NCBI GenBank assembly: GCA_965218975.1
Contig: OZ244717.1
Location: 928,001 to 992,000, forward strand
Reading direction: 5' to 3'
Length of the DNA: 64,000 nucleotides
Origin: Candidatus Oxydemutatoraceae bacterium
GTDB lineage: Bacteria; Pseudomonadota; Gammaproteobacteria; Poriferisulfidales; Oxydemutatoraceae
Below are positions 235 through 64,000 of the stretch, one piece after another. The notes under the pieces are model-generated. The model saw only the letters and a program-made list of their open reading frames with translations, was not told the origin of the DNA and did no database searches. Both the position numbers and the translations under genes were made by a program. How positions within the stretch are numbered: position 1 is the stretch's first letter; each line of letters opens with the position of its first letter.

Positions 235-318
235 ATGCGGATGTTCGGTAACATTAGCAGTGTAGTCAAAGTTTTTAGCGTGGCGGCATTCATCGCTATA
301 GCGCCTGCTTTGGAAGCG
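235..318 (+). other. Sec signal peptide of the giant protein
   Basis: MRMFGNISSVVKVFSVAAFIAIAPALEA|QF has basic residues, a hydrophobic core and an ALEA cleavage region. No lipobox Cys or twin-Arg motif. Confidence 0.75.
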
Positions 319-12300: not shown

Positions 12301-15300
12301 TCGGTTACCGGCGGTGCGGATGATGCCCTGTTTGATATCGACTCGTCTTCGGGTGAATTGAGTTTCGTCACCGCGCCGGACTTTGAGAATGCGGTGGATG
12401 CGGATACGGATAACGTTTATATGCTCATCGTGACGGCGATCGGCGGCACGGACGCTCGAGCGTTGACGACGACGCAAGAGATTACGGTGACGGTGCTTGA
12501 TGTGCCGACGACGGTCACGATTACGGCGGCGGAGCCGACGGTAACGGAAGGTGAGCCGGTAATGTTCACGTTTGAGCGGACCGACGCGACGGATGCGCCG
12601 GCATTGACGGTGAACATTACGATAGATGCGACCGACGAAGTGCTTGCGGATGTGGCGCCTGGTATGGTGACTTTCGACGCCGGTTCTGCGAGAACGGTGC
12701 TTAGCCTTGCCACCGTCATTGATGAGGCGTTTGGCGTCAGAACGGTGATGGTTACCGTGAACGACGGTGTGGGTTATGAGGTCGGTATTGAGAATAGCGC
12801 CGAGGTGCGGGTGATTGACGTCAACGTGGCACCGGTATTCAGCAGTGCGGAAAGTTTTGAGGTCAACGAAGGGGAGACGGTAGTCGGCACGGTGACGGCT
12901 GAGGATGCGAACATAGAAGACGAAGTGACGTATTCGATTACCAACGGCGCGGATCAAGATCAGTTTACTATTGACTCGTCTTCGGGCGAGTTGAGTTTCG
13001 CCACCGCACCGGACTTTGAGAATGCAGCGGATGCGGACGGAGACAATGCATACATGCTCACGGTGGCGGTAATCGGCGGCACGGACGCTCGGGCGTTGAC
13101 GACGACGCAAGCGATTATGGTGACGGTGCTTGATGTGCCGACGACGATTACGATTACGGCAGACGAGCCGATGGTAACGGAAGGCGAGCCGGCGGTGTTC
13201 ACGTTCAGCCGGACCGACGCGACGGATGCGCCTGCATTGACGGTGAACATTACGGTAGACGATTCCGGCGGAGTGCTTGCGGATGCGGCGCCTGATACGA
13301 TTACTTTTGACGCCGATTCTGCGACAACGGTGCTCAACCTTGCCACCATTGATGATACGCTTGAAGAAGACGACAGCACGGTGACGGTTACCGTGAACGA
13401 CGGTGTGGATTATGCGGTCGGTATTGAGAATAGTGCCGAGGTGCGGGTGAACGACAACGACGGGCCGTTAACGATCTCGTTCGTCACGACCGAGTATATG
13501 GTCAATGAAAGCGATAGAGAGGTAAGGTTCGAACTCAGACTGAGCGACGAAAGACCGCTGCGCGGCAATATAAACGTTGGCTTAACGGCACGCGACGGCA
13601 GCGCGGTCCTTACTGAGGATTATTCCCCGAGAGGTAGTGTTACTATCTATACTCCTATATCAGTTCTGATGAGAACTGTGCAGTATTTCATTATCGATGA
13701 CGATGTCTTCGAAACCGAAGAATTCTTTTCGTTGAGGATTTCCGGTGTAACGACGTTTCATAGCGACGATGAGGTGGTGATCGGTCAGGGGCGCGTAGCG
13801 ACGGTTACCATCATTGATGACGATTTGCCTCCTATCTGGAGTTTGGACATGTTGCCGAGTAGTGTCAGTGAAAGTAGGGACACCGCGGTGCCGATTGTGA
13901 TGAGGCGGATGCGTGATTTACTTGACAGAGGATATCCGCTGACGCTTGAGTTGGGGGGGACGGCGACGTTCGGCGAAGACTACGTTATCACGGATATGGA
14001 TGACAATTCGTTCGCGTTACCGCTTACATTCCCTGCGCCGTATATTGCCGATGATGTGTTTGATCTTCGGACAGATAAAACAGTCGAATTCCGCTTAGTG
14101 ATAACAGACGACGCGGTGTTTGAGGGAGCCGAGACGATTGAGCTGCGATTAACTACGACGGACCCTGACGTTACGATAGGCAGCGATACGACTCAGACGA
14201 TTACGATCATCGACAACGATGCGGTGCCGGTGTTGTCTCTGACGGTCGGTGCAACCGCAATCAATGAAGGCGCATTGACCGATATCGAAGTGGGAATCAC
14301 GAACGAGTCGGTATATGCCGAAGATCAAACGATCACGTTAGAGTTTGCCGGCGATGCGATGCCTGAGGACGACTATACGGTAATGGTCGGAGATTCGCCG
14401 TTGTCATCGCCGTATGTGTTGACTTTGCCGGCGGGGTTGTCTTCGGTAAGCGCAACGATCATGGCGACAGACGACATGACGGCTGAGGGGAATGAGACGA
14501 TCACACTAACCGCCCGGCATGAAGGCGACACGATCGGCGAGGCAATGATTACGATCATTGACGATGATGCGGCGCCGGAGTTGGATTTGTCGGTGAGCGA
14601 GACCACCATTGACGAAGGAGTATCAGCCGATATTACGCTAGAAATCACGAACGAATCGGTATTTGCCGAGAATCAAACGATTACGTTAGAGTTTGACGGC
14701 ACGGCAACGGAGGATGACTATACGCTATCGGCTGAGAATTTACCGCTGTTGCCGCCGCATGAGTTGATTTTACCGGCGGGGTCGTCTTCGGTAAGCGCAA
14801 TGATCATGGCGCTAATAGACGACATGACGGCTGAGGGGAATGAGACGATTATGATTACCGCCCGGCATGAAGGCGAAATGATCGGCGAGGTAACGATCAC
14901 GATCATTGATAACACGGCGCCGGTCTTCAGCGATGCGGTAAGTTTTGAGGTCGACGAAGGACAGACGACGGTCGGCGTTGTGACGGCTGAGGATGCGAAC
15001 CCGCAAGACGAGGCAATGTATTCGATTACCGGTGGGGCGGATGATGCCCTGTTTGATATTGACTCGTCTTCGGGTGAGTTGAGTTTCGCCACCGCACCGG
15101 ACTTTGAGAATGCGGCGGATGCGGATACGGATAACGTTTATGTGCTCACGGTGACGGCAATCGGCGGCACGGACGCTCGAGCGTTGACGACGACGCAAGA
15201 GATTACGGTAACGGTGCTTGATGTGCCTACGACGGTCACGATTACGGCGGCGGAGCCGACGATAACGGAAGGCGAGTCGGCGGTGTTTACATTCAGTCGG

Positions 15301-18300
15301 ACCGACGCGACGGATGCGCCGGCATTGACGGTGAACATTACGATAGATGCGACCGACGAAGTACTTGCGGATGCGGCGCCTGAAATGGTGACTTTCGACG
15401 CCGGTTCTGCGAGAACGGTGCTTAGCCTTGCCACCGTCATTGATGAGGCGTTTGGCGTCAGGACGGTGATGGTTACCGTGAACGACGGTATGGGTTATGA
15501 GGTCGGTATTGAGAATAGCGCCGAGGTGCGGGTGATTGACGTCAACGTGGCACCGGTATTCAGCAGTTCGGAAAGTTTTGAGGTCAACGAAGGGCAGACG
15601 GTAGTCGGCACGGTGACGGCTGAGGATGCGAACATAGAGGACGAGGTGATGTATTCGATTACCAACGGCGCGGATCAAGATCAGTTTACTATTGACCCGT
15701 TTTCGGGCGAGTTGAGTTTCGCCACCACACCGGACTTTGAGAATCCGGCGGATGCGGATACGGATAACGTTTATATGCTCATCGTGACGGCAGTCAGCGG
15801 CACGGACGCTCGGGCATTGACGACGACGCAAGAGATTGCGGTGACGGTGCTTGATGTGCCGACGACGATCACGATTACGGCAGAAGACCCGACGGTCACG
15901 GAAGGCGAGCCGGCGGTGTTCACGTTCAGCCGGACCGAGGCGACGGATGCGCCTGCATTGACGGTGAACATTACGGTAGACGATTCCGGCGGAGTGCTTG
16001 CGGATGCGGCGCCTGATACGATTACTTTTGCTGCCGATTCTGCGACAACGGCGCTCAGTCTTGCCACCGACGACGATACGCTTGAAGAAGACGGCAGCAC
16101 GGTGACGGTTACCGTCATAGGCGGTATGGATTATGCGGTCGGTATTGAGAACAGTGCTTCGGTGCGGGTTGTCGACAACGACGTTAACGTGGCGCCGGCA
16201 TTCATCAGTGCAGCAAGTTTTGATGTCAACGAAGGGGAGACGGTAGTCGGTACGGTGACGGCTGCGGATGCGAACATAGAAGACGAGGTGATGTATTCGA
16301 TTACCGGCGATGCGGATGATGTTTTGTTTGCAATTGACCCGTCTTCGGGCGAGTTGAGTTTCGCCACCGCACCGGACTATGAGAATCCGGCGGATGCGGA
16401 TACGGATAACGTTTATATGCTCATCGTGACGGCAACCGGCGGCACGGACGCTCGGGCGTTGACGACGACGCAAGCGATTACGGTGACGGTGCTTGATGTG
16501 CCTACGACGATTACGATTACGGCGGCAGAGCCGATGGTAACGGAAGGCGAGCCGGCGGTGTTCGTGTTTGAGCGGACCGACTCGACGAATGTGTCGGAAT
16601 TGAATGTGTTCTTTACGGTAGATGATCCCGGCGGAGTGCTTGTGCTTCCAAAGCCTTTTGCTCTTTCTTTTGGAGCTGCTGGAGCTGCTTCCGAGACAGC
16701 GATGCTCAGCCTTGCCACCATTGATGACGCGCTTGAAGAAGACGACAGCACGGTGACGGTTACCGTTGGTGCCCATATGAATTATGAGGTCGGCATTGAG
16801 AATAGTGCCGAGGTGCGGGTTGTCGACAACGACGTCAACGTGGCGCCGGCATTCATCAGTGCAGCAAGTTTTGAGGTCAACGAAGGGGAGACGGTAGTCG
16901 GCACGGTGACGGCTGCGGATGCGAATATAGAAGACGAGGTGACGTATTCGGTTATCGGCGGTGCGGATGATGCCTTGTTTGATATCGACTCGTCTTCGGG
17001 CGAACTGAGCTTCACAACCGCACCGGACTATGAGAATCCGGTGGATGCGGATGAAGACAATAACTACATGCTCACGGTGGTGGCAATCGGCGGCACGGAC
17101 GTTCGGACGTTGACGACGACGCAAGCGATTACGGTGACGGTGCTTGATGTGCCTACGACGATCACGATTACGGCGGCAGAGCCGATGGTAACGGAAGGCG
17201 AGCCGGCGGTGTTTACATTCAGTCGGACCGACGCGACGGATGCGCCGGTATTGGCGGTGAACATTACGGTAGATGATTCCGACGGGGTGCTTGCGGCAGC
17301 GGCACCTGAAATGGTGACTTTTGACGCCGGTTCTGCGATAACGGTGCTCAACCTTGCCACTATTGATGATACGCTTGAAGAAGACGACAGCACGGTGACG
17401 GTTACCGTTGTTGCCACTACGGATTATGAAGTCGGTATTGAGAACAGTGCTTCGGTGCGGGTTGTCGACAACGACGTCAACGTAGCGCCGGTATTCACCA
17501 GTGCAGCAAGTTTTGAGGTCAACGAAGGGCAGACAGTAGTCGGCACAGTGACGGCTGCGGATGTGAACATAGAGGACGAGGTGATGTATTCGATTACCGG
17601 CAGCGCGGATCAAGATCAGTTTACTATTGACCCGTCTTCGGGTGAGTTGAGTTTCGCCGCTGCACCGGACTTTGAGAATCCGACGGATGCGGACGGAGAC
17701 AATGCATACATGCTCACAGTGGCGGCAATCGGCGGCACGGACGTTCGGGCGTTGACGACGACGCAAGCGATTACCGTCAGAGTGCTTGATTTGCCGGTAA
17801 TAACGATTGCGGCAGTCGAGCCGATGGTAACGGAAGGCGAGCCGGCGGTGTTCGTGTTTGAGCGGACCGACGCGACGGATGTGTTGGATTTGTTTGTGTT
17901 CTTTACGGTAGTTGAGTCCGGCGAGGTGCTTGTGGTTCCAACGCCTGCTGGTATTTCTTTTAGACCTGCTTCCGAGACAGTGATGCTCAGCGTTGCCACC
18001 ATTGATGATACGCTTGAAGAAGACGACAGCACGGTGACGGTTACCATTGGTGTCGACGATACGGGTTTTTATGAAGTCGGTATTGAGAACAGTGCCGAGG
18101 TGCGGGTTGTCGACAACGACGTCAACGTAGCGCCGGTATTTACGAGTGCGGAAAGTTTTGAGGTCAACGAAGGGCAGACGTTAGTCGGCACGGTGACGGC
18201 TGAGGATGCGAACATGGGGGATGAGGTGACCTATTCGGTTACTGGCGGTGCGGATGGCACCCTGTTCACCATTGACCCGTCTTCGGGCGAGTTGAGTCTC

Positions 18301-21300
18301 GCCACTGCACCGGACTATGAGAATCCGGCGGATGCGGATACGGATAACGTTTATATGCTCACGGTGGCGGCAATCGGCGGCACGGACGCTCGAGCGTTGA
18401 CGACGACACAAGGGATTACGGTGACGGTGCTTGATGTGCCTACGACGATCACGATTACGGCGGACAAAGCAGAGGTTACGGAAGGCGAGCCGGTAATGTT
18501 TACATTCAGTCGGACCGACGCGACGGATGCGCTTGCATTGGCGGTGAACATTACGGTAGATGATCTCGACGGGGTGCTTGCGGCAGCGGCACCTGAAATG
18601 GTGACTTTTGCTGCCGGTTCTGCGACAGCGGAGCTCAGTCTTGCCACCGACGACGATACGCTTGAAGAAGACGACAGCGTAGTGACGGTTACCATCATAG
18701 ACAGTGCGGACTATAGGATCGGTATTGAGAACAGTGCTTCGGTGCGTGTTGTCGACGACGACGTCAACGTGGCGCCGGCATTCATCAGTGCAGCAAGTTT
18801 TGAGGTCAACGAAGGGCAGCCAGTAGTCGGTACGGTGACGGCTGCGGATGCGAACATAGAAGACGAGGTGATGTATTCGATTACCGGCGATGCGGATGAT
18901 GCCCTGTTTGATATCGACTCGTCTTCGGGCGAGTTGGGTTTCGCCACTGCACCGGACTTTGAGAATGCAGCGGATGCGGATACGGATAACGTTTATATGC
19001 TCATCGTGACGGCAACCGGCGGCACGGACGCTCGGGCGTTGACGACGACGCAAGCGATTACGGTGACGGTGCTTGATGTGCCTACGACGATTACGATTAC
19101 GGCGGCAGAGCCGATGGTAACGGAAGGCGAGCCGGCAGTGTTCGTGTTTGAGCGGACCGACTCGACGAATGTGTCGGAATTGAATGTGTTCTTTACGGTA
19201 GATGATCCCGGCGGAGTGCTTGTGCTTCCAAAGCCTTTTGCTCTTTCTTTTGGAGCTGCTGGAGCTGCTTCCGAGACAGCGATGCTCAGCCTTGCCACCA
19301 TTGATGATGCGCTTGAAGAAGACGACAGCACGGTAACGGTTACCGTTGGTGCCCATATGAATTATGAGGTCGGCATTGAGAATAGTGCCGAGGTGCGGGT
19401 TGTCGACAACGACGTCAACGTGGCACCGGTATTCAGCGATCCGGTAAGTTTTGAGGTCAACGAAGGGGAGACGGTAGTCGGCACGGTGACGGCTGAGGAT
19501 GCGAACCCGCAAGACGAGGTGAGGTATTCGGTTACCGGCGGTGCGGATGATGCCCTGTTTGATATCGACTCGTCTTCGGGCGAACTGAGCTTCACAACCG
19601 CACCGGACTATGAGAATCCGGCGGATGCGGATACGGATAACGTTTATATGCTCATCGTGACGGCGGCCGGCGGCACGGGTGCTCGGGCGTTGACGACGAC
19701 GCAAGAGATTACGGTGACGGTGCTTGATGTGCCGACTACAATTACGATTTTTGCTGACGAACCGACGGTAACGGAAGGCGAGCTGGCGGTGTTCACGTTG
19801 AATCGGACCGCGCCGACGGATACGGGATTATTGGTGGAGATTGAGGTAGTTGATTCCCCCGACGGAACGGTAGTCGGTAACCCCGGTGGAGCGCTTATGG
19901 TTTTGATACCTGATATGATTACTTTTAGGGCCGGTTCTACGACAGCGGTGCTCAGTCTTGCCACCATTGATGATATGATTGATGAAGCCGACAGCACGCT
20001 GACGGTTACCGTTGTTGAAGGGATGAGTTATGAGGTTGGTATCGAGAATAGCGCCGAGGTGCGGGTTGTCGACAACGATGACGTACCGGGTGCGCCGGCG
20101 GAATTAGCAGCCGCAGCGGGCGACACGCACGCAGTCCTAAGTTGGGAAGCGCCTGCCGACCCCGGCACTTCGCCGATTGAGCGTTACGAATATCGCGCGA
20201 GCAGTGACGCCGGAACGATTGGGGATCAGGAATGGAATGCCGCCGGCGATGCGACGGGCGAAGTCAGAACTCAAATCGTATCGAGCTTAAGCAACGACAC
20301 GGAATACACATTTGAAGTACGCGCGGTCAGCGCGGCGGGCAACGGTGCAGCCGCGCAAATCACGGCGACACCGAGTTCCGAGACGGCGGTATTCACTCTG
20401 ACGTTTGACCCGAGCGAATATACGCTCACTGAAAGTGACCAGAGGGTAACTCTCACGCTCAGACTGATCGGCGAAGAGCGTGCGCTGCAAGATGATGTAA
20501 CCGTTACTGTCTCGACACACGACGGCAGCGCGGTCACTCCTCAGGATTATGTGGCTATTGAGAATGCGACGGTTGTCTTTGAACCCGAAGAGGGCGTGAC
20601 CGAGTTAACGCAAACGGTGACGGTTCAGATTGTCAATGACATCGTTTTTGAGTTAGATGACGAGATCTTTTCGGTGATTATTAACGATGTAACGGCGGCG
20701 ACTTCCAGCGACACGGTCGTGATTGATCAAGGCGAAGCGACGGTTACCATCGTCGATGACGGCGGCCCACCGATTTGGGTATTGGACCGGTTGCCGAGTT
20801 CTGTCGGTGAAAGCACGGGCACCGTGTCGATTGAGATGAGGCGCGTGTCGATTGTTAATTCTGATACTAACCGCGGGTATTCGCTGACGCTTGAGCTGGG
20901 AGGGACGGCGACGTTCGGCGACGACTACGTCATCACGGATATAGACGGCAATCCGTTGGCGTCGCCGCCTACATTCGATATAGCGCAAAACCAAACAATG
21001 CTTGAAGCCCGCCTGATAATAACGGACGATAGGGTGTTTGAGGGCGAGGAGACGATTGAGATACGCTTGAGCACGACCGAGCCGAAGATCCTGATAGACG
21101 ACGCTACGACGCAGACGATCACGCTCATCGACAACGATGCAGCGCCGGAGTTAGATTTGTCGGTGAGTGCGGTAGCGATTGACGAAGGGGCATCGGTTGA
21201 TATTACGCTAGAGATCACGAACGAATCGGTATTTGCTGAGGATCAAACGATTACATTAGAGTTTACCGGCGATGCGATGCCTGAGGACGACTATACGGTA

Positions 21301-24300
21301 TCGGTCGACGGTTCGCCGCTGTTACCGCCGTATGAGTTGACTTTAACGGCGGGAGAATCTGCGCTAAACGCAACGATCATGGCGCTAATAGACGACATGA
21401 CGGCTGAGGGAGATGAGACGATTACACTAACCGCGCGGCATGGTGACGACACAATCGGCGAGGAAACGATCACAATCATTGATAACGAGGCGCCGGTATT
21501 CAGCAGTATGCCAAGTTTTGAGGTCAACGAAGGGGAGACGATAGTCGGCACGGTGACGGCTGAGGATGCGAACATAGAGGACGAGGTGATGTATTCGGTT
21601 ACCGGTGACGGTGCGGATGATGTCTTGTTTGATGTCGACTCGTCTTCGGGCGAACTGAGCTTCATAACCGCACCGGACTATGAGAATCCGGCGGATGCGG
21701 ATACGGATAACGTTTATATGCTCATCGTGACGGCGGCTGGCGGCACGGACGTTCGGGCGTTGACGACGACACAAGCGATTACGGTGACGGTGCTTGATGT
21801 GGCTACGACGATTACGATTACGGCAGACGAGCCGATGGTCACGGAAGGCGAGCCGGCGATGTTCACGTTCAGCCGGACCGACGCGACGGATGCGCTTGCA
21901 TTGACGGTGAACATTACGGTAGATGATTCCGGCGGAGTGCTTGCGGATGCGGCGCCTGATACGATTACTTTTGCTGCCGATTCTGCGACAACGGCGCTCA
22001 ACCTTGCCACCATTGATGATACGCTTGAAGAAGACGACAGCACGGTGACGGTTACCGTCATAGGCGGTATGGATTATGCGGTCGGTATTGAGAATAGTGC
22101 CGAGGTGCGGGTGAACGACAACGACGTTAACGTGGCGCCGGCATTCATCAGTGCAGCAAGTTTTGATGTCAACGAAGGAGAGACGGTAGTCGGCACGGTG
22201 ACGGCTGGGGATGCGAACCCGCAAGACGAGGTAACGTATTCGGTTACCGGCGGTGCGGATGATGCCCTGTTTGATATCGACTCGTCTTCGGGCGAACTGA
22301 GCTTCACAACTGCACCGGACTATGAGAATCCGGCAGATGCGGATACGGATAACGTTTATATGCTCATCGTGACGGCGGCCGGCGGCACGGACGCTCGGGC
22401 GTTGACGACGACGCAAGCGATTACGGTGACGGTGCTTGATGTGCCTACGACGATTACGATTACGGCGGCAGAGCCGATGGTAACGGAAGGCGAGCCGGCG
22501 GTGTTCGTGTTTGAGCGGACCGACGCGACGGATGCGCCGACATTGACAGTGAACATTACGATAGATGCGACCGACGAAGTGCTTGCGGATGCGGCGCCTG
22601 GTATGGTGACTTTTGACGCCGGTTCTACGACAACGGTACTTAGCCTTGCCACTGTCATTGATGAAATGTTTGGTGTCAGAACGGTGACGGTTACCGTGAA
22701 CGACGATGTGGATTATGCGGTCGGTATTGAGAATAGCGCCGAGGTGCGGGTGATTGACGTCAACGTGGCGCCGGTATTCAGTGAGCCGGTGAGTTTTGAC
22801 ATTGATGAGAGTCTGACAGTAGTCGGCACGGTGACGGCTGAGGATGCGAACATAGAAGACGAGGTGATGTATTCGGTTACCGGTGACGGTGCGGATGATG
22901 CTCTGTTTGATATCGACTCGTCTTCGGGCGAACTGAGCTTCACAACCGCACCGGACTATGAGAATCCGGCGGATGCGGATACGGATAACGTTTATATGCT
23001 CATCGTGACGGCGGTCGGCGGCACGGACGCTCGAGCGTTGACGACGACACAAGGGATTACGGTGACGGTGCTTGATGTGCCGACGACGGTCACGATTACG
23101 GTGGCAGAGCCGATGGTAACGGAAGGCGAGTCGGCGGTGTTTACATTCAGTCGGACCGACGTGACGGATGCGCCGGCATTGACAGTGAACATTACGATAG
23201 ATGCGACCGACGAAGTGCTTGCGGATGCGGCGCCTGGTATGGTGACTTTTGACGCCGGTTCTGCGAGAACGGTGCTTAGCCTTGCCACCGTCATTGATGA
23301 GGCGTTTGGCGTCAGGACGGTGATGGTTACCGTGAACGACGGTGTGGGTTATGAGGTCGGTATTGAGAATAGCGCCGAGGTGCGGGTGATTGACGTCAAC
23401 GTGGCACCGGTATTCAGCAGTGCGGAAAGTTTTGAGGTCGACGAAGGGGAGACGGTAGTCGGCACGGTGACGGCTGAGGATGCGAACATAGAAGACGAAG
23501 TGACGTATTCGATTACCAACGGCGCGGATCAAGATCAGTTTACTATTGACCCGTCTTCGGGCGAGTTGAGTTTCGTCACCGCACCGGACTTTGAGAATGC
23601 AGCGGATGCGGACGGAGACAATGCATACATGCTCACGGTGGCGGCAATCGGCGGCACGGACGCTCGGGCGTTGACGACGACGCAAGCGATTATGGTGACG
23701 GTGCTTGATGTGCCGACGACGATTACGATTACGGCAGACGAGCCGATGGTAACGGAAGGCGAGCCGGCGGTGTTCACGTTCAGCCGGACCGAGGCGACGG
23801 ATGCGCTGGCATTGACGGTGAACATTACGGTAGACGATTCCGGCGGAGTGCTTGCGGATGCGGCGCCTGATACGATTACTTTTGCTGCCGATTCTGCGAC
23901 AACGGCGCTCAGTCTTGCCACCGACGATGATACGCTTGAAGAAGACGACAGCACGGTGACGGTTACCGTGAACGACGGTGTGGATTATGCGGTCGGTATT
24001 GAGAACAGTGCCGAGGTGCGGGTGAACGACAACGACGGGCCGTTCACGATCTCGTTCGTCCAGAGCGAATATACGTTCAATGAAAGGGACTCGGCAGTTG
24101 TCATGATCAGACTGAGCGGCGAAAGACCGCGGCGCGGCAATGTAACGGTTACGGTTGATGCACACGACGGCAGCGCGGTTTTTATTGAGGATTATGGGTT
24201 GCGTAGTAGCGGTCTTATCTTTTTTCCTACCGTAATGCTGAGATCTGAGAGGTTTATTACTATTGATAACGCGGTTGTCGAGACCGAAGAATTCTTTTCG

Positions 24301-27300: not shown

Positions 27301-30300
27301 AGAACGGTGACGGTTACCGTGAACGACGGTGTGGATTATGCGGTCGGTATTGAGAATAGTGCTGAGGTGCGGGTGGTTGACGTCAACGTGGCGCCGGTAT
27401 TCAGCAGTATGCCAAGTTTTGAGGTCAACGAAGGGGAGACGGTAGTCGGCACGGTGACGGCTGAGGATGCGAACCCGCAAGACGAGGCAATGTATTCGAT
27501 TACCGGTGGGGCGGATGAGACCTTGTTCACCATTGACGACCCGTCTTCGGGTGAATTGAGTTTCGTCACCGCGCCGGACTTTGAGAATGCGGCGGATGCG
27601 GATGCGGATAACGTTTATATGCTCATCGTGACGGCAATCGGCGGCACGGACGCTCGAGCGTTGACGACGACGCAAGAGATTACGGTGACGGTGCTTGATG
27701 TGGCTACGACGATCACGATTACGGCGGACAAAGCAGAGGTTACGGAAGGCGAGCTGGCGGTGTTTACATTCAGTCGGACCGACGCGACGGATGCGCTGGC
27801 ATTGACGGTGAACATTACGGTAGATGATCCTGCCGGAGCGCTTGCGACTGCGCTGCCTGGTATGGTGACTTTTGACGCCGGTTCTGCGCGAACGGTGCTT
27901 AGCCTTGCCACCGTCATTGATGAGGCGTTTGGCGTCAGGACGGTGATGGTTACCGTGAACGACGGTATGGGTTATGAGGTCGGTATTGAGAATAGCGCCG
28001 AGGTGCGGGTGATTGACGTCAACGTGGCACCGGTATTCAGCAGTGCGGAAAGTTTTGAGGTCGACGAAGGGGAGACGGTAGTCGGCACGGTGACGGCTGC
28101 GGATGCGAACATAGAAGACGAGGTGATGTATTCGGTTACCAACGGCGCGGATCAAGATCAGTTTACTATTGACCCGTCTTCGGGCGAATTGAGTTTCGCC
28201 ACCGCACCGGACTTTGAGAATGCGGCGGATGCAGATACGGATAACGTTTATATGCTCATCGTGACGGCGGCCGGCGGCACGGACGCTCGGGCGTTGACGA
28301 CGACGCAAGAGATTGCGGTGACGGTGCTTGATGTGGCTACGACGATTACGATTACGGCAGAAGACCCGACGGTCACGGAAGGCGAGCCGGCGGTGTTCAC
28401 GTTCACCCGGACCGACGCGACGGATGCGCTGGCATTGACGGTGAACATTACGGTAGACGATTCCGGCGGAGTGCTTGCGGATGCGGCGCCTGATACGATT
28501 ACTTTTGACGCCGATTCTGCGACAACGGTGCTCAACCTTGCCACCATTGATGATACGCTTGAAGAAGACGACAGCACGGTGACGGTTACCGTGAACGACG
28601 GTGTGGATTATGCGGTCGGTATTGAGAATAGTGCCGAGGTGCGGGTGAACGACAACGACGGGCCGTTAACGATCTCGTTCGTCACGACCGAGTATATGGT
28701 CAATGAAAGCGATAGAGAGGTAAGGTTCGAACTCAGACTGAGCGACGAAAGACCGCTGCGCGGCAATATAAACGTTGACTTAACGGCAAGCGACGGCAGC
28801 GCGGTCCTTCATGAGGATTATTCCCCGAGAGTTAGTGTTACTATCTATACTCCTATATCAGTTCTGATGAGAACTGTGCAGTATTTCATTATCGATGACG
28901 ATGTCTTCGAAACCGAAGAATTCTTTTCGTTGAGGATTTCCGGTGTAACGACGTTTCATAGCGACGATGAGGTGGTGATCGGTCAGGGGCGCGTAGCGAC
29001 GGTTACCATCATTGATGACGATTTGCCTCCTATCTGGAGTTTGGACATGTTGCCGAGTAGTGTCAGTGAAAGTAGGGACACCGCGGTGCCGATTGTGATG
29101 AGGCGGATGCGTGATTTACTTGACAGAGGATATCCGCTGACGCTTGAGTTGGGGGGGACGGCGACGTTCGGCGAAGACTACGTTATCACGGATATGGATG
29201 ACAATTCGTTCGCGTTACCGCTTACATTCCCTGCGCCGTATATTGCCGATGATGTGTTTGATCTTCGGACAGATAAAACAGTCGAATTCCGCTTAGTGAT
29301 AACAGACGACGCGGTGTTTGAGGGAGCCGAGACGATTGAGCTGCGATTAACTACGACGGACCCTGACGTTACGATAGGCAGCGATACGACTCAGACGATT
29401 ACGATCATCGACAACGATGCGGTGCCGGTGTTGTCTCTGACGGTCGGTGCAACCGCAATCAATGAAGGCGCATTGACCGATATCGAAGTGGGAATCACGA
29501 ACGAGTCGGTATATGCCGAAGATCAAACGATCACGTTAGAGTTTGCCGGCGATGCGATGCCTGAGGACGACTATACGGTAATGGTCGGAGATTCGCCGTT
29601 GTCATCGCCGTATGTGTTGACTTTGCCGGCGGGGTTGTCTTCGGTAACCGCAACGATCATGGCGACAGACGACATGACGGCTGAGGGGAATGAGACGATC
29701 ACACTAACCGCCCGGCATGAAGGCGACACAATCGGCGAGGAAACGATTACGATCATTGACGATGATGCGGCGCCGGAGTTGGATTTGTCGGTGAGCGAGA
29801 CCACCATTGACGAAGGCGCATTGACCGATATTGAAGTGGGAATCACGAACGAGTCGGTATATGCCGAAGATCAAACGATCACATTAGAGTTTGCCGGTGA
29901 GGCGACGCCTGAGGACGACTATACAGTAATGGTCGGAGGTTCGTTGCTGTCGTCGCCGTATCAAGTGATTTTACCGGCGGGGTCGTCTTCGGTAAGCGCA
30001 ATGATCATGGCGCTAATAGACGACATGATGGCTGAGGGGAATGAGACGATTATGATTACCGCCCGGCATGAAGGCGAAATGATCGGCGAGGTAACGATCA
30101 CGATCATTGATAACACGGCGCCGGTCTTCAGCGATGCGGTAAGTTTTGAGGTCGACGAAGGACAGACGACGGTCGGCGTTGTGACGGCTGAGGATGCGAA
30201 CCCGCAAGACGAGGCAATGTATTTGATTACCGGTGGGGCGGATGAGGCCTTGTTCACCATTGACGACCCGTCTTCGGGTGAATTGAGTTTCGTCACCGCG

Positions 30301-33300
30301 CCGGACTTTGAGAATGCGGCGGATGCGGATACGGATAACGTTTATATGCTCATCGTGACGGCAATCGGCGGCACGGACGCTCGAGCGTTGACGACGACGC
30401 AAGAGATTACGGTGACGGTGCTTGATGTGCCTACGACGGTCACGATTACGGCGGCGGAGCCGACGGTAACGGAAGGTGAGCCGGTAATGTTCACGTTTGA
30501 GCGGACCGACGCGACGGATGCGCTGGCATTGACGGTGAACATTACGATAGATGCGACCGACGAAGTGCTTGCGGATGCGGCGCCTGAAATGGTGACTTTC
30601 GACGCCGGTTCTGCGAGAACGGTGCTTAGCCTTGCCACCGTCATTGATGAGGCGTTTGGCGTCAAGACGGTGATGGTTACCGTGAACGACGGTATGGGTT
30701 ATGAGGTCGGTATTGAGAATAGCGCCGAGGTGCGGGTGATTGACGTCAACGTGGCACCGGTATTCAGCAGTGCGGAAAGTTTTGAGGTCAACGAAGGCCA
30801 GACGGCAATCGGCACGGTGACGGCTGCGGATGCGAACATAGAAGACGAGGTGATGTATTCGGTTACCGGCGGGGCGGATGATGCTCTGTTTGTAATTGAC
30901 TCGTCTTCGGGCGAATTGAGTTTCGCCACCGCACCGGACTATGAGAATCCGGCGGATGCGGATGAAGACAATAACTATATGCTCATCGTGACAGCGGCCG
31001 GCGGCACGGACGCTCGGGCGTTAACGACGACGCAAGCGATTACGGTGACGGTGCTTGATGTGCCGACGACGATCACGATTACGGCAGAAGACCCGACGGT
31101 CACGGAAGGCGAGCCGGCGGTGTTCACGTTCAGCCGGACCGACGCGACGGATGCGCTTGCATTGACGGTGAACATTACGGTAGACGATTCCGGCGGAGTG
31201 CTTGCGGATGCGGCGCCTGATACGATTACTTTTGCTGCCGATTCTGCGACAACGGCGCTCAGTCTTGCCACCGACGACGATACGCTTGAAGAAGACGACA
31301 GCACGGTGACGGTTACCGTCATAGGCGGTATGGATTATGCGGTCGGTATTGAGAATAGTGCCGAGGTGCGGGTGAACGACAACGACGTTAACGTGGCGCC
31401 GGCATTCATCAGTGCAGCAAGTTTTGAGGTCAACGAAGGGGAGACGGTAGTCGGCACGGTGACGGCTGAGGATGCGAACCGGCAAGACGAGGTAACGTAT
31501 TCGGTTACCGGCGGTGCGGATGATGCCTTGTTTGATATCGACTCGTCTTCGGGCGAACTGATCTTCACAACTGCACCGGACTATGAGAATCCGGCAGATG
31601 TGGATACGGATAACGTTTATATGCTCATCGTGACGGCGGCCGGCGGCACAGACGCTCGGGCATTGACGACGACGCAAGAGATTACGGTGACGGTGCTTGA
31701 TGTGCCTACGACGATTACGATTACGGCGGACAAAGCAGAGGTTACGGAAGGCGAGTCGGTGGTGTTTACATTCAGTCGGACCGACGCGACGGATGTGCCA
31801 AATTTGTTTGTGAACATTACGGTAGTTGCAACCGACGAAGTGCTTGCGGATGCGGCGCCTGGTATGGTGACTTTTGACGCCGGTTCTACGACAACGGTAC
31901 TTAGCCTTGCCACTGTCATTGATGAAATGATTGGCGACAGAACGGTGATGGTTACCGTGAACGACGGTGTGGATTATGCGGTCGGTATTGAGAATAGTGC
32001 TGAGGTGCGGGTGGTTGACGTCAACGTGGCGCCGGTATTCAGCAGTATGCCAAGTTTTGAGGTCAACGAAGGGGAGACGGTAGTCGGCACGGTGACGGCT
32101 GAGGATGCGAACCCGCAAGACGAGGCAATGTATTCGATTACCGGTGGGGCGGATGAGACCTTGTTCACCATTGACGACCCGTCTTCGGGTGAATTGAGTT
32201 TCGTCACCGCGCCGGACTATGAGAATCCGGCGGATGCGGATACGGATAACGTTTATATGCTCATCGTGACGGCGGCCGGCGGCACGGACGCTCGAGCGTT
32301 GACGACGACACAAGGGATTACGGTGACGGTGCTTGATGTGCCGACGACGGTCACGATTACGGTGGCAGAGCCGATGGTAACGGAAGGCGAGCCGGCGGTG
32401 TTTACATTCAGTCGGACCGACGCGACAGATGCGCCGGCATTGACAGTGAACATTACGATAGATGCGACCGACGAAGTGCTTGCGGATGCGGCGCCTGGTA
32501 TGGTGACTTTTGACGCCGGTTCTGCGAGAACGGTGCTTAGCCTTGCCACCGTTATTGATGAGGCGTTTGGCGTCAGGACGGTGATGGTTACCGTGAACGA
32601 CGGTATGGGTTATGAGGTCGGTATTGAGAATAGCGCCGAGGTACGGGTGATTGACGTCAACGTGGCACCGGTATTCAGCAGTGCGGAAAGTTTTGAGGTC
32701 AACGAAGGGGAGACGGTAGTCGGCACGGTGACGGCTGCGGATGCGAACATAGAAGACGAGGTGATGTATTCGGTTACCAACGGCGCGGATCAAGATCAGT
32801 TTACTATTGACCCGTCTTCGGGCGAATTGAGTTTCGCCACCGCACCGGACTTTGAGAATCCGGCGGATGCGGATACGGATAACGTTTATATGCTCATCGT
32901 GACGGCAGCCGGCGGCACGGACGCTCGGGCGTTGACGACGACGCAAGCGATTATGGTGACGGTGCTTGATGTGGCTACGACGATTACGATTACGGCAGAA
33001 GACCCGACGGTCACGGAAGGCGAGCCGGCGGTGTTCACGTTCACCCGGACCGACGCGACGGATGCGCTGGCATTGACGGTGAACATTACGGTAGACGATT
33101 CCGGCGGAGTGCTTGCGGATGCGGCGCCTGATACGATTACTTTTGCTGCCGATTCTGCGACAACGGCGCTCAACCTTGCCACCATTGATGATACGCTTGA
33201 AGAAGACGACAGCACGGTGACGGTTACCGTGAACGACGGTGTGGATTATGCGGTCGGTATTGAGAATAGTGCCGAGGTGCGGGTGAACGACAACGACGGG

Positions 33301-36300
33301 CCGTTCACGATCTCGTTCGACCCGACCGAGTATACGGTCAATGAAGGCCGCACGGCAGTTGTCATGATCAGACTGAGCGGCGAAAGACCGCGGCGCGGCA
33401 ATATAAACGTTGACGTAACGGCAAGCGACGGCAGCGCGGTTTTTATTGAGGATTATGGGTTGCGTAGTAGCGGTCTTATCTTTTTTCCTACCGTAATGCT
33501 GAGATCTGAGAGGTTTACTACTATTGATAACGCGGTTGTCGAGACCGAAGAAATCTTTTCGGTGAGACTTAGGGATGTAATGGCATCGGATCCCGCCGAT
33601 GAGGTGGTGATCGGTCAGGGCGAAGCGACGGTTACCATCATTGATGACGATTTGCCTCCTATCTGGAGTTTGGACATGTTGCCGAGTAGTGTCAGTGAAA
33701 GTAGGGACACCGCGGTGCCGATTGTGATGAGGCGGATGCGTGATTTACTTGACAGAGGATATCCGCTGACGCTTGAGTTGGGGGGGACGGCGACGTTCGG
33801 CGAAGACTACGTTATCACGGATATGGATGACAATCCGTTCGCGTTACCGCTTACATTCCCTGCGCCGTATATTGCCGATGATGTGTTTGATCTTCGGACA
33901 GATAAAACAGTCGAATTCGGCTTAGTGATAACAGACGACGCGGTGTTTGAGGGAGCCGAGACGATTGAGCTGCGATTAACTACGACGGACCCTGACGTTA
34001 CGATAGGCAGCGATACGACTCAGACGATTACGATCATCGACAACGATGCGGTGCCGGTGTTGTCTCTGACGGTCGGTGCAACCGCAATCAATGAAGGCGC
34101 ATTGACCGATATCGAAGTGGGAATCACGAACGAGTCGGTATATGCCGAAGATCAAACGATCACGTTAGAGTTTGCCGGCGATGCGATGCCTGAGGACGAC
34201 TATACGGTAATGGTCGGAGATTCGCCGTTGTCGTCGCCGTATGAGTTGACTTTGCCGGCGGGGTTGTCTTCGGTAACCGCAACGATCATGGCGACAGACG
34301 ACATGACGGCTGAGGGGAATGAGACGATCACACTAACCGCCCGGCATGAAGGCGACACAATCGGCGAGGAAACGATTACGATCATTGACGATGATGCGGC
34401 GCCGGAGTTGGATTTGTCGGTGAGCGAGACCACCATTGACGAAGGCGCATTGACCGATATTGAAGTGGGAATCACGAACGAGTCGGTATATGCCGAAGAT
34501 CAAACGATCACATTAGAGTTTGCCGGTGAGGCGACGCCTGAGGACGACTATACAGTAATGGTCGGAGGTTCGTTGCTGTCGTCGCCGTATCAAGTGATTT
34601 TACCGGCGGGGTCGTCTTCGGTAAGCGCAATGATCATGGCGCTAATAGACGACATGACGGCTGAGGGGAATGAGACGATTATGATTACCGCCCGGCATGA
34701 AGGCGAAATGATCGGCGAGGTAACGATCACGATCATTGATAACACGGCGCCGGTCTTCAGCGATGCGGTAAGTTTTGCGGTCGACGAAGGACAGACGACG
34801 GTCGGCGTTGTGACGGCTGAGGATGCGAACCCGCAAGACGAGGCAATGTATTTGATTACCGGTGGGGCGGATGAGGCCTTGTTCACCATTGACGACCCGT
34901 CTTCGGGTGAATTGAGTTTCGTCACCGCGCCGGACTTTGAGAATGCGGCGGATGCGGATACGGATAACGTTTATATGCTCATCGTGACGGCAATCGGCGG
35001 CACGGACGCTCGAGCGTTGACGACGACGCAAGAGATTACGGTAACGGTGCTTGATGTGCCTACGACGGTCACGATTACGGCGGCGGAGCCGACGGTAACG
35101 GAAGGTGAGCCGGTAATGTTCACGTTTGAGCGGACCGACGCGACGGATGCGCCGGCATTGACGGTGAACATTACGATAGATGCGACCGACGAAGTGCTTG
35201 CGGATGTGGCGCCTGGTATGGTGACTTTCGACGCCGGTTCTGCGAGAACGGTGCTTAGCCTTGCCACCGTCATTGATGAGGCGTTTGGTGTCAGAACGGT
35301 GATGGTTACCGTGAACGACGGTGTGGGTTATGAGGTCGGTATTGAGAATAGCGCCGAGGTGCGGGTGATTGACGTCAACGTGGCACCGGTATTCAGCAGT
35401 GCGGAAAGTTTTGAGGTCAACGAAGGACAGACGGCAATCGGCACGGTGACGGCTGCGGATGCGAACATAGAAGACGAAGTGACGTATTCGGTTACCGGCG
35501 GGGCGGATGATGCTCTGTTTGCAATTGACTCGTCTTCGGGCGAATTGAGTTTCGTCACCGCACCGGACTATGAGAATCCGGCGGATGCGGATGAAGACAA
35601 TAACTACATGCTCATCGTGACGGCGGCTGGCGGCACGGACGCTCGGGCGTTGACGACGACGCAAGCGATTACGGTGACGGTGCTTGATGTGCCGACGACG
35701 ATCACGATTACGGCAGAAGACCCGACGGTCACGGAAGGCGAGCCGGCGGTGTTCACGTTCAGCCGGACCGACGCGACGGATGCGCTTGCATTGACGGTGA
35801 ACATTACGGTAGACGATTCCGGCGGAGTGCTTGCGGATGCGGCGCCTGATACGATTACTTTTGCTGCCGATTCTGCGACAACGGCGCTCAGTCTTGCCAC
35901 CGACGACGATACGCTTGAAGAAGACGACAGCACGGTGACGGTTACCGTCATAGGCGGTATGGATTATGCGGTCGGTATTGAGAATAGTGCCGAGGTGCGG
36001 GTGAACGACAACGACGTTAACGTGGCGCCGGCATTCATCAGTGCAGCAAGTTTTGAGGTCAACGAAGGGGAGACGGTAGTCGGCACGGTGACGGCTGAGG
36101 ATGCGAACCGGCAAGACGAGGTAACGTATTCGGTTACCGGCGGTGCGGATGATGCCTTGTTTGATATCGACTCGTCTTCGGGCGAACTGATCTTCACAAC
36201 TGCACCGGACTATGAGAATCCGGCAGATGTGGATACGGATAACGTTTATATGCTCATCGTGACGGCGGCCGGCGGCACAGACGCTCGGGCATTGACGACG

Positions 36301-39300
36301 ACGCAAGCGATTACGGTGGCGGTGCTTGATGTGCCTACGACGATTACGATTACGGCGGCAGAGCCGATGGTCACGGAAGGCGAGCCGGCGGTGTTCGTGT
36401 TTGAGCGGACCGACGCGACGGATGTGCCAAATTTGTTTGTGAACATTACGGTAGTTGCAACCGACGAAGTGCTTGCGGATGCGGCGCCTGGTATGGTGAC
36501 TTTTGACGCCGGTTCTACGACAACGGTACTTAGCCTTGCCACTGTCATTGATGAAATGATTGGCGACAGAACGGTGACGGTTACCGTGAACGACGGTGTG
36601 GATTATGCGGTCGGTATTGAGAATAGTGCTGAGGTGCGGGTGGTTGACGTCAACGTGGCGCCGGTATTCAGCAGTATGCCAAGTTTTGAGGTCAACGAAG
36701 GGGAGACGGTAGTCGGCACGGTGACGGCTGAGGATGCGAACCCGCAAGACGAGGCAATGTATTCGATTACCGGTGGGGCGGATGAGACCTTGTTCACCAT
36801 TGACGACCCGTCTTCGGGTGAATTGAGTTTCGTCACCGCGCCGGACTTTGAGAATGCGGCGGATGCGGATGCGGATAACGTTTATATGCTCATCGTGACG
36901 GCAATCGGCGGCACGGACGCTCGAGCGTTGACGACGACGCAAGAGATTACGGTGACGGTGCTTGATGTGGCTACGACGATCACGATTACGGCGGACAAAG
37001 CAGAGGTTACGGAAGGCGAGCTGGCGGTGTTTACATTCAGTCGGACCGACGCGACGGATGCGCTGGCATTGACGGTGAACATTACGGTAGATGATCCTGC
37101 CGGAGCGCTTGCGACTGCGCTGCCTGGTATGGTGACTTTTGACGCCGGTTCTGCGCGAACGGTGCTTAGCCTTGCCACCGTCATTGATGAGGCGTTTGGC
37201 GTCAGGACGGTGATGGTTACCGTGAACGACGGTATGGGTTATGAGGTCGGTATTGAGAATAGCGCCGAGGTGCGGGTGATTGACGTCAACGTGGCACCGG
37301 TATTCAGCAGTGCGGAAAGTTTTGAGGTCGACGAAGGGGAGACGGTAGTCGGCACGGTGACGGCTGCGGATGCGAACATAGAAGACGAGGTGATGTATTC
37401 GGTTACCAACGGCGCGGATCAAGATCAGTTTACTATTGACCCGTCTTCGGGCGAATTGAGTTTCGCCACCGCACCGGACTTTGAGAATGCGGCGGATGCA
37501 GATACGGATAACGTTTATATGCTCATCGTGACGGCGGCCGGCGGCACGGACGCTCGGGCGTTGACGACGACGCAAGAGATTGCGGTGACGGTGCTTGATG
37601 TGGCTACGACGATTACGATTACGGCAGAAGACCCGACGGTCACGGAAGGCGAGCCGGCGGTGTTCACGTTCACCCGGACCGACGCGACGGATGCGCTGGC
37701 ATTGACGGTGAACATTACGGTAGACGATTCCGGCGGAGTGCTTGCGGATGCGGCGCCTGATACGATTACTTTTGACGCCGATTCTGCGACAACGGTGCTC
37801 AACCTTGCCACCATTGATGATACGCTTGAAGAAGACGACAGCACGGTGACGGTTACCGTGAACGACGGTGTGGATTATGCGGTCGGTATTGAGAATAGTG
37901 CCGAGGTGCGGGTGAACGACAACGACGGGCCGTTAACGATCTCGTTCGTCACGACCGAGTATATGGTCAATGAAAGCGATAGAGAGGTAAGGTTCGAACT
38001 CAGACTGAGCGACGAAAGACCGCTGCGCGGCAATATAAACGTTGGCTTAACGGCACGCGACGGCAGCGCGGTCCTTACTGAGGATTATTCCCCGAGAGGT
38101 AGTATTACTATCTATACTCCTGGATCAGTTCTGCTGAGATCTGCGCAGTATTTCATTATCGATGACGATGTCTTCGAAACCGAAGAATTCTTTTCGTTGA
38201 GGATTTCCGGTGTAACGACGTTTCATAGCGACGATGAGGTGGTGATCGGTCAGGGGCGCGTAGCGACGGTTACCATCATTGATGACGATTTGCCTCCTAT
38301 CTGGAGTTTGGACATGTTGCCGAGTAGTGTCAGTGAAAGTAGGGACACCGCGGTGCCGATTGTGATGAGGCGGATGCGTGATTTACTTGACAGAGGATAT
38401 CCGCTGACGCTTGAGTTGGGGGGGACGGCGACGTTCGGCGAAGACTACGTTATCACGGATATGGATGACAATTCGTTCGCGTTACCGCTTACATTCCCTG
38501 CGCCGTATATTGCCGATGATGTGTTTGATCTTCGGACAGATAAAACAGTCGAATTCCGCTTAGTGATAACAGACGACGCGGTGTTTGAGGGAGCCGAGAC
38601 GATTGAGCTGCGATTAACTACGACGGACCCTGACGTTACGATAGGCAGCGATACGACTCAGACGATTACGATCATCGACAACGATGCGGTGCCGGTGTTG
38701 TCTCTGACGGTCGGTGCAACCGCAATCAATGAAGGCGCATTGACCGATATCGAAGTGGGAATCACGAACGAGTCGGTATATGCCGAAGATCAAACGATCA
38801 CGTTAGAGTTTGCCGGCGATGCGATGCCTGAGGACGACTATACGGTAATGGTCGGAGATTCGCCGTTGTCATCGCCGTATGTGTTGACTTTGCCGGCGGG
38901 GTTGTCTTCGGTAACCGCAACGATCATGGCGACAGACGACATGACGGCTGAGGGGAATGAGACGATCACACTAACCGCCCGGCATGAAGGCGACACAATC
39001 GGCGAGGAAACGATTACGATCATTGACGATGATGCGGCGCCGGAGTTGGATTTGTCGGTGAGCGAGACCACCATTGACGAAGGCGCATTGACCGATATTG
39101 AAGTGGGAATCACGAACGAGTCGGTATATGCCGAAGATCAAACGATCACATTAGAGTTTGCCGGTGAGGCGACGCCTGAGGACGACTATACAGTAATGGT
39201 CGGAGGTTCGTTGCTGTCGTCGCCGTATCAAGTGATTTTACCGGCGGGGTCGTCTTCGGTAAGCGCAATGATCATGGCGCTAATAGACGACATGATGGCT

Positions 39301-58930: not shown

Positions 58931-59650
58931 ATGCCCGGCAAGATTATTCGGAAAAACCATACGCATGTTTTATATGCCCCTGATGTTCTTAAACACATTG
59001 ATGTTATAGATTGGTTTGAATCGGCGGCGGCAACCGAAGCTTCTATTGATCTTCCGGATATCGCAAGCGGTCGCGTAGCGGTGCGTTTTTTCCATTTATA
59101 CGGAATAGAGCTTGTGTTAAAACAATATATCCGCGGCGGTTTCATTACACATTTTTCGCATAATCATTACTTATATCTCGGCGAATGGGCGGTACGTTCG
59201 TTTTCGGAATGGTATTTGCTTGATAGTTTATTTCGCCGGAAATTACCGGTACCGCGTCCGGTAGCGGCGCGCTATCGGCGCGAGGGGCGGGTTTACACTG
59301 CGGAACTCATTACCGTCAGTTGTCGTCCCGCAAAGCCTCTTTCTAGATTACTGACTCAACGAAGTTTAGCGGTAGAAGAATGGTTGCTAATCGGTAGCAC
59401 AATTAAGTCTTTCCATCGGGCGGGAGTTTATCACGCCGATTTGAATGCGCATAATATCCTTCTTAATACGAACAAGCAGTGCTTCCTGATTGATTTTGAC
59501 CGTGGCGCTCGACGTAGGATGGCGCATTATTGGCACATCCAAATGTTGAATCGTCTGCATCAGTCTCTACGAAAACTAAACCGGACAGTTAAAGGTTTTC
59601 ACTTCGGCACAAAAGATTGGAAAAACTTAATGCGGGGGTATATCCAATGA
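58931..59650 (+). CDS. kdkA: 3-deoxy-D-manno-octulosonic acid (Kdo) kinase
   Basis: Motifs VLKQYIRGG, LPVPRPVAARY, YHADLNAHNILL and LIDFDRG; 239 aa; adjacent to waaA. Confidence 0.9.
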   Translation: MPGKIIRKNHTHVLYAPDVLKHIDVIDWFESAAATEASIDLPDIASGRVAVRFFHLYGIELVLKQYIRGGFITHFSHNHYLYLGEWAVRSFSEWYLLDSLFRRKLPVPRPVAARYRREGRVYTAELITVSCRPAKPLSRLLTQRSLAVEEWLLIGSTIKSFHRAGVYHADLNAHNILLNTNKQCFLIDFDRGARRRMAHYWHIQMLNRLHQSLRKLNRTVKGFHFGTKDWKNLMRGYIQ

Positions 59651-59654
59651 AACG

Positions 59655-62314: not shown

Positions 62315-62630
62315 TGCCGAACATTGTAGCGGATTATGTCGAGTATGACACTATACATATACATATACCGTATGGAGCCGGCACATATATACACTTTATG
62401 TCGGCGCAACATATAAGCTATTATCTTACATGGAAGGAAACATTATGACCGCAGCAAACTTTGCCATGAGCCCGGTAATGGTGTAAACGGATCATTTGAA
62501 AATAAGCACTTCGGTAAACCATGCGTTTTGAAGTGCCGGATGAGGAAATCCTCTTTGAAAACGGGAGCGGGAATATGTATTGAGAAGTTGAAATTTATAA
62601 AATCGCACTGAGTCGATTGTTTCTTTAAGT

Positions 62631-62957: not shown

Positions 62958-62966
62958 GTATAATAA

Positions 62967-64000
<1,034 letters not shown>

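Follow-up and report, generated by a model that had tools for sequence, protein, structure and literature searches.

Linked protein-changing variants in the Calx-beta cassettes of a giant repeat gene of a Candidatus Oxydemutatoraceae bacterium

Segmental gene conversion is used for surface variation in systems such as pilE/pilS and VlsE. In the MgPa/MgPar system of Mycoplasma genitalium short segments are swapped among paralogs, which gives mosaic variable regions between conserved ones (PMC2169797, in its accessible part), and in Apilactobacillus kunkeei the genes Giant1-5, which take up 6% of a 1.5 Mb genome, are described in the available portion of PMC12863079 as diversifying chiefly through brief recombination events inside the genes. 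Giant genes have also been documented more generally (bioRxiv 10.1101/2023.11.21.568195). This work deals with a giant open reading frame (ORF) in 64,000 nucleotides of a Candidatus Oxydemutatoraceae bacterium (assembly GCA_965218975.1, contig OZ244717.1, positions 928,001 to 992,000 of the forward strand; hereafter the window), and with a patch of 34 codons in which copies of one of its Calx-beta cassettes differ. We think it fairly probable that this patch is standing variation between paralogs of a single hypervariable Calx-beta cassette, in a giant repeat protein that is secreted and probably anchored by rhombosortase. The patch was probably shaped by concerted evolution together with conversion of short tracts, and selection probably favoured or tolerated change at the protein level only.

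A preliminary description of this DNA listed nine codon changes, none of them silent, among three copies of the type-B cassette, which it named by the starts of their Calx-beta domains at 13462, 28660 and 37927 (offsets 15198 and 24465; here B1, B2 and B3). All nine are reproduced when the copies are compared by codon in the giant ORF's reading frame, and all nine are non-synonymous. Between B1 and B2 they are GGC>GAC (G>D, 13579), CGC>AGC (R>S, 13591), ACT>CAT (T>H, 13612) and GGT>GTT (G>V, 13633), and between B1 and B3 GTT>ATT (V>I, 13639), ATA>GGA (I>G, 13657), ATG>CTG (M>L, 13669), ACT>TCT (T>S, 13675) and GTG>GCG (V>A, 13678). They amount to 11 bases, all within 13579-13680 and the partner positions of the other copies, and are in-frame substitutions only, with no insertions or deletions, six at first codon positions, five at second and none at third (P = (2/3)^11 = 0.012). 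The DNA around the patch, described earlier as identical over several hundred bases, is so at 100% in 100-base bins from -200 to +900, with one exception at 14449, where there is a further non-synonymous change, AGC>ACC (S>T). The broader statement that every type-B difference is non-synonymous stands for the domain itself, where this is true of 10 of the 10 variable codons in five domains (aa 4405-4525), the tenth being I>T in copy X, which lies in another giant gene. It does not stand beyond the domain, as silent differences are found outside it, and only there (e.g., aa 4314, 4324, 4724, 4733 and 4760); over about 4.4 kb, the B2 and B3 repeats differ by 16 non-synonymous and 5 synonymous codons. 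The two type-A domains, A1 and A2, differ in two codons, both non-synonymous.

The nine patch sites form two fully linked blocks, with two states each, across the five type-B copies (Table 1): B2 and X read DSHV|VIMTV, B3 and B4 read GRTG|IGLSA, and B1, with GRTG|VIMTV, has block 1 of B3 and block 2 of B2. The nine changes, being linked in this way, are therefore not nine independent observations. Three of the four possible block combinations are present, so by the four-gamete test recombination within the patch is not demonstrated. A search of the whole genome (one contig of 2,081,000 bases, 47.7% G+C) with the patch region gives five copies at 96.7% identity or more, the next best match standing at 74.6%. 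Copy X carries the same patch as B2 in a 9,164-aa open frame, 850 kb away, and matches B2 at 98-100% in four 150-base bins from offset 0 to +450 (the first three at 100%) and at 98% in the -150 bin.

These copies belong to a larger architecture. Exact 40-mers in the giant gene recur chiefly at offsets 9267, 4638 and 4629, and self-BLAST of the gene returns super-repeats of ~4.6 kb; the gene is built from these super-repeats, nearly identical in DNA, with a single cassette (type A, B or C) in each. By profile search the ORF has 13 domains of this Calx-beta subfamily, eight of them close paralogs of the three types (A1 and A2; B1 to B4; C1 and C2), and two more close copies are found in other giant genes, X of type B and Y of type C. 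Between types the flanks are 92-100% identical and the cassette core 50-76%, with only 50-67% in core segment s3. The flank figure covers the A, B and C copies of this gene together with Y; B and C copies share 96-100%, and the downstream flank of X stands at 89-94%. The upstream flank (DSTVTVTVNDGVDYAVG) is invariant except in B4, where five residues, IGGMD, are inserted and one D is replaced by G (window 49807-49821, computed from the aa position).

Core segments have been exchanged among cassettes, both within this gene and with other giant genes. In C2, the 57-base segment s2 agrees with B2 and X at 95% but with C1 and Y at 79%, whilst s1 and s4 of the same cassette are 100% identical to Y; in C1, s1 and s4 are 92% and 97% identical to type A. 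Four of the nine variant codons of the patch (GAC, AGC, CTG and TCT) match type-C codons at the same column, which indicates short-tract gene conversion as a source. Donation of a whole block by an extant copy was considered and rejected, since none fits and a tract from C2 fails at one codon (TTA/GTA). Silent donor cassettes were not found either, each of the 64 matches in this genome falling within an uninterrupted open frame, 872 to 19,552 aa long.

The near-identical pair of repeats at offset 9267 shows three clusters of differences, of which the patch is one. A second tight cluster (27040-27136 versus 36307-36403) has 10 non-synonymous and 4 synonymous codons, and reads TITITADKAEVTEGESVVFTFSRTD in one copy and TITITAAEPMVTEGEPAVFVFERTD in the other. 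It looks like a short segment swapped in from another module, and a similar peptide may lie near the N-terminus. A third and looser cluster (30523-31114 versus 39790-40381) has 7 non-synonymous and 5 synonymous codons.

By profile the cassette is a Calx-beta domain, and by model it has the seven-strand beta-sandwich of the CBD1 kind. The profile of the 13 cassette paralogs matches NCX1 CBD1 with E 3.8e-13 (to 3us9), the AlphaFold2 model of the cassette is all-beta (pLDDT 75.9, pTM 0.68), and its best Foldseek matches are 2dpk, 3gin and 3e9t (TM 0.63-0.67, probability 1.00), with 2dpk at the top (TM 0.67). In the profile alignment the motif IIDDDVFETEE faces IIDDDIFEEDE of CBD1. Model and alignment together place the patch on strands C to E, its nine residues being aa 4449, 4453, 4460, 4467, 4469, 4475, 4479, 4481 and 4482. 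In block 1, G/D would sit on strand C, R/S beside the DG of the C-D loop, and T/H right before the EDY motif; G/V and V/I would fall at strand D, I/G in the turn from D to E (PG in CBD1), and M/L, T/S and V/A on strand E, a little before the acidic motif DDDVFETEE. Block 1 is placed near the Ca2+ site on the assumption that the C-D loop aspartate and the acidic motif of CBD1 are what binds Ca2+.

The variants are also seen outside this assembly. Logan contigs of four public runs (X1, X2, X5 and X6) were compared with window 13300-14100. In runs X1 and X2, which belong to one study, both block-1 states occur on 115-base contigs that extend into block 2, with k-mer depths of 473 and 444 in X1 and of 59 and 50 in X2. 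In run X5, from another study, GRTG|IGLSA is found on one 309-base contig, whose six differences are the six block-2 bases. No variant was seen in run X6, the contigs of which cover 19 of the 30 bins; those of X5 cover 17 of the 30, and the gaps in both runs carry no meaning. As all three haplotypes are present in public runs, the patch differences are not consensus errors, the possibility that the preliminary description had named as fatal to its claim. The sets of haplotypes differ by study, with GRTG and DSHV, both with VIMTV, in X1 and X2, and GRTG with IGLSA in X5, which suggests that samples or strains differ in the patch haplotypes they carry.

As to selection, Nei-Gojobori counting over the patch gives 0 synonymous against 11 non-synonymous changes (S=26.7, N=75.3). 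The probability of no silent change is 0.018-0.065 when omega (dN/dS) is 1 (kappa 1 to 4; 9 or 11 events), and 0.003-0.02 under a gene-wide omega of 0.65. Across ten cassette pairs, pairwise Nei-Gojobori omega is 0.66-1.51 in the 106-codon core and 0.47-0.65 in the rest of the 1,300-codon unit, the whole-gene value being itself high (about 0.5-0.65). By maximum likelihood (GY+F3X4, iqtree2, ten sequences) omega is 1.50 in the core (102 codons) and 0.60 in the rest (1,105 codons), and with the tree fixed a value of 0.6 is rejected for the core (p=1.6e-5). Within types A and B, 12 of the 12 variable codons are non-synonymous. The core is not unconstrained, since 19 of its columns are invariant across 13 paralogs, and an average omega near 1.5 in spite of these columns would mean that some sites are well above 1.

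Read as standing variation between paralogs of one cassette, the patch could have arisen as follows. A few events, by point or multi-base mutations and short-tract gene conversions, would have made the blocks, and conversion or duplication would then have spread them to other copies, wiping out all other differences. Variants that change amino acids would persist and would probably be favoured, if the face of the domain that carries them contacts a ligand or can for some other reason tolerate diversity; this face is made up of strand C, the C-D loop beside the acidic motif of the Ca2+ site, strands D and E, and the turn between these two. Modules of one filament, and strains, would then show slightly different surfaces. 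A bolder version, which we put forward as speculation and hold to be rather doubtful, is that the invariant flanks act as recombination handles that shuffle core segments among the ten close cassettes in three giant GlyGly-CTERM genes, that selection favours new residues near the Ca2+-binding tip, and that a cell thereby shows, along single filaments, binding surfaces in combinatorial sets, with strains differing in the set. If so, this would be diversification by cassette shuffling without silent cassettes, reverse transcriptase or invertase.

Diversifying selection on the patch, which the preliminary description proposed, is plausible but unproven: the excess of protein-changing differences is real and extends beyond the three copies listed there, but omega above 1 is borderline and the changes are possibly just two events. 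The check it suggested, dN/dS above 1 confined to these segments, comes out with the expected contrast between core (1.50) and rest (0.60), under a single-tree codon model, but without passing, as the core value is not significantly above 1 (likelihood-ratio p=0.056). Together with this last result, several others weigh against the reading given above. The omega tests assume a single tree and the alignment is a mosaic. The patch, which was chosen post hoc, is not significantly different from the other two difference clusters in the near-identical pair of repeats (Fisher p=0.074). The block-2 changes are largely conservative (V/I, M/L, T/S and V/A), and near-neutral drift fits them as well as adaptation does. 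No donor in this genome accounts for five of the nine variant codons, and a contiguous C2 tract would also have turned TTA into GTA at a codon where B2 keeps TTA. A recombinant origin is possible for B1 but not required, as its haplotype may instead be ancestral to the other two. Lastly, runs X1 and X2 did not show the IGLSA state of block 2 despite contig coverage, although contigs can drop variants and this is therefore not read as absence; nor can contigs assign haplotypes to copies, so that the placement of haplotypes in this assembly is provisional.

Much of this would equally follow from neutral or relaxed evolution and chance, with a weakly constrained core (omega about 1) and the missing silent changes a sampling accident noticed by a pattern-seeking reader. 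The probability of no silent change at omega 1 is after all just 0.018-0.065, the test against omega 1 and the comparison with the other two clusters both stay above 0.05, omega is high over the gene as a whole, and block 2 consists largely of conservative replacements. Against such an accident stand the 19 invariant Calx-beta columns across 13 paralogs, with an average of 1.5 implying sites well above 1, the 12 of 12 within-type codons, and the absence of third-position changes among the 11 (p=0.012). On balance, we regard neutrality as a serious possibility, of perhaps one chance in a few, that falls short of being probable.

Nine independent adaptive point mutations, with the copies driven apart separately by an antagonist (phage, predator or host), seem unlikely to us. 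Such a history would fit the fact that all changes alter the protein, the core omega of 1.50, and the different haplotype sets in the read sets of different studies, but it does not fit complete linkage in two blocks with two states each over five copies, the same haplotype in B2 and X and again in B3 and B4, which shows copying rather than parallel mutation, or the four of nine states common to type-C cassettes. An artefact of assembly or polishing, through mis-mapped paralog reads or consensus error in a hard repeat, is very improbable. Repeats of 4.6 to 9.3 kb at near 100% identity are indeed hard to assemble, and the block-2 alternative is unseen in the contigs of runs X1 and X2, which represent the region best. 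On the other hand, all three haplotypes exist as public contigs, with the block-1 states at about equal depth in both of these runs, the changes are in-frame substitutions that spare third positions (p=0.012) and include no insertions or deletions, and the same haplotype recurs in X, in the unique context of a second gene. Substitutions packed in a ~100-base stretch of a surface-protein gene, in DNA otherwise identical, might bring to mind a dedicated mutagenic machine, such as a diversity-generating retroelement, but targeted mutagenesis of this kind is excluded as next to impossible. The single-contig, 99.44%-complete genome has 0 matches to the reverse transcriptase family PF00078 (control genomes gave matches), the genome holds no template-like patch copy beyond the five coding ones, neither coding-strand state is an A at three of the 11 variable bases, and no Rfam family is found in the window.

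Table 1. Features of the giant gene discussed in the text, in window coordinates.
Feature	Position	Strand	Remarks
Giant ORF	235..58878	+	19,547 aa, 58.6 kb; from ORF list, translation and Pfam
Type-A cassette A1	10735..11082	+	
Type-B cassette B1	13456..13800	+	aa 4408-4522; patch GRTG|VIMTV
Patch block 1 in B1	13579..13635	+	4 variable codons, G/D, R/S, T/H, G/V; states GRTG or DSHV
Patch block 2 in B1	13639..13680	+	5 variable codons, V/I, I/G, M/L, T/S, V/A; states VIMTV or IGLSA
Type-C cassette C1	24031..24369	+	mosaic; s1 (92%) and s4 (97%) close to type A
Near-identical repeat pair, ~5.4 kb	26134..31600 vs 35401-40867	+	offset 9267; three difference clusters, including the patch
Type-B cassette B2	28654..28998	+	aa 9474-9588; patch 28777-28878, DSHV|VIMTV
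Type-C cassette C2	33292..33630	+	mosaic; 57-base s2 close to B2 and X (95%), less so to C1 and Y (79%)
Type-B cassette B3	37921..38265	+	aa 12563-12677; patch 38044-38145, GRTG|IGLSA
Type-B cassette B4	49864..50208	+	aa 16544-16658; patch 49987-50088, same as B3; not listed in the preliminary description
Type-A cassette A2	52588..52935	+	2 codon differences from A1 in domain, both non-synonymous
C-terminal tail, GlyGly-CTERM-like	58747..58875	+	RRRGGGGG, hydrophobic stretch, RR

The protein that carries these cassettes has Cadherin and Calx-beta matches above the Pfam cut-off in five of the five pieces into which the ORF was divided, and fn3 in four of them; Calx-beta (PF03160) scores 42.8-174 bits in all five pieces, against a cut-off of 27. 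Its N-terminus, in translation, is like a Sec signal (MRMFGNISSVVKVFSVAAFIAIAPALEAQ). The GlyGly-CTERM signal is defined by three tail parts, Gly/Ser-rich, hydrophobic and basic (PMC6219818, in the portion available), and the tail of the giant protein, RRRGGGGGAVGLWFILLMLASVAASRR, has a Gly-rich, a hydrophobic and a basic part in this order. At G000:C1:43033-43494 the genome encodes a rhombosortase (TIGR03902, 141.8 bits; cut-off 84), which would be expected to process GlyGly-CTERM-like tails. An NCBIfam scan of the last 100 and the last 1000 residues at E<=0.01 gave a single match, to choice_anch_U (26.5-27.4 bits, cut-off 32), and none to the GlyGly-CTERM model, such short signal models being easily lost to search filters. 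An RTX or type 1 secretion C-terminus was not seen, Pfam matching only Cadherin, Calx-beta, Cadherin_CELSR2_9th and fn3 in the last 3,547 residues.

Downstream of the giant gene (window 58931-63998) there are genes for a Kdo/WaaP-family kinase (+), the Kdo transferase WaaA (-), a TolC-like outer membrane efflux protein (-), which lies 2 kb downstream of the giant ORF, and ThiC (+, truncated by the window end). In a ThiC scan the matches reach only 56-65% identity and come mostly from Gamma- and Betaproteobacteria. The giant gene (window 1-58000) has 53-57% G+C with a steady GC skew of +0.14 to +0.21, and the DNA downstream of it 47-48% G+C, close to the genome mean, with a lower skew. Within the giant gene the minus strand has fifteen antisense ORFs (253 to 1,021 aa; 3667-56238), their spacing mirroring the repeats; most likely they are not genes but by-products of sense-strand codon composition and the strong GC skew.

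Other giant open frames are found elsewhere in the genome, of 9,164 aa (G000:C1:1811648-1839139), 7,845 aa (714850-738384), 5,903 aa (G000:C1:1364458-1382166) and 5,254 aa (842305-858066). All four have the same Calx-beta subfamily and a GGGG/hydrophobic/KRR tail, which smaller ORFs have too, and a GlyGly-CTERM-like tail is found on at least eight large ORFs in total. The 13 open frames of at least 1,500 aa make up 9.1% of the genome. Among 40 other, related genomes, 13 gave a match, the best at 39-41% identity over fewer than 100 residues, and none holds a close homolog of this cassette. Six of these relatives (G001, G004, G022, G006, G012 and G034; 1.8-2.4 Mb) have Calx-beta matches in open frames 6,470 to 17,496 aa long, which suggests that giant proteins of the Calx-beta kind are characteristic of the lineage. 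In JGI metagenome contigs an exact 21-base anchor has 0 matches, and a protein-based scan of the same contigs gave 186 pattern matches with no relative among them. No protein homolog of near length was found at E<=1e-20 among 1,271 candidates (the collection being searched at 147-2000 aa), and longer proteins (470-2000 aa) gave 36 matches at 24-45% identity, of which those above 34% cover at most 32% of the query. The N-terminal 560 aa, searched in genome contigs, found no relative.

If selection does maintain diversity in this patch of standing variation, the patch would mark a likely ligand-contact surface in an otherwise unreadable protein of 19,547 aa, and would show how a small genome, with about 9% of its DNA in frames of at least 1,500 aa, tunes the binding of those proteins. 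It is also a clean natural case of concerted evolution removing all but the protein-changing differences. In principle none of the ingredients is new, since giant repeat adhesins, recombination within genes and hypervariable patches have all been described before, and support for selection is borderline.

The locus shares something with each of several described systems and departs from each of them. In its module the cassette resembles NCX1 CBD1 (2dpk), with the same predicted fold and the same DG..DY and DDDxFExxE motifs, but CBD1 serves a eukaryotic exchanger as a Ca2+ sensor in the cytosol, and the cassette, about 22-25% identical to it, would be an extracellular bacterial module. In its tandem beta-sandwich modules, cadherin-like and Calx-beta, the giant protein is like BapP of Pseudoalteromonas tunicata, SiiE, LapA and CabC/CabD of Saccharophagus (PMC12153261, in the part available). 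The acidic motif DDDxFExxE of Calx-beta is retained here, and a role in adhesion at the cell surface is presumed, as for the BapP-type adhesins of that report. Unlike the LapA/SiiE type, the protein, at 19,547 aa, has a Sec-like N-terminus and a GlyGly-CTERM-like tail, with no RTX end seen, and cassette types set within invariant flanks are a feature of this gene that the available portion of PMC12153261 does not mention for BapP-type adhesins. The tail has the same three parts as those of rhombosortase substrates such as VesB of Vibrio cholerae (PMC6219818 and PMC3237569, each in part); VesB-type substrates, in these accounts, are enzymes of ordinary size, whilst here the protein is giant and its processing is predicted from sequence. 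In the swapping of short segments the cassettes are like MgPa, but with neither silent donors nor a single expression site, and the variants would be displayed together instead of being switched. Taken as an analogy, the closest parallel is that of A. kunkeei Giant1-5, since here too several genes for giant extracellular proteins are found in a small genome (19,552, 9,164, 7,845, 5,903 and 5,254 aa in 2.08 Mb). A. kunkeei, however, is Gram-positive, and its proteins, in the portion of the report available, have beta-solenoid heads and no Calx-beta/cadherin arrays. Their variation, as given there, lies between strains and positional homologs, whereas here it lies between near-identical tandem modules of one polypeptide.

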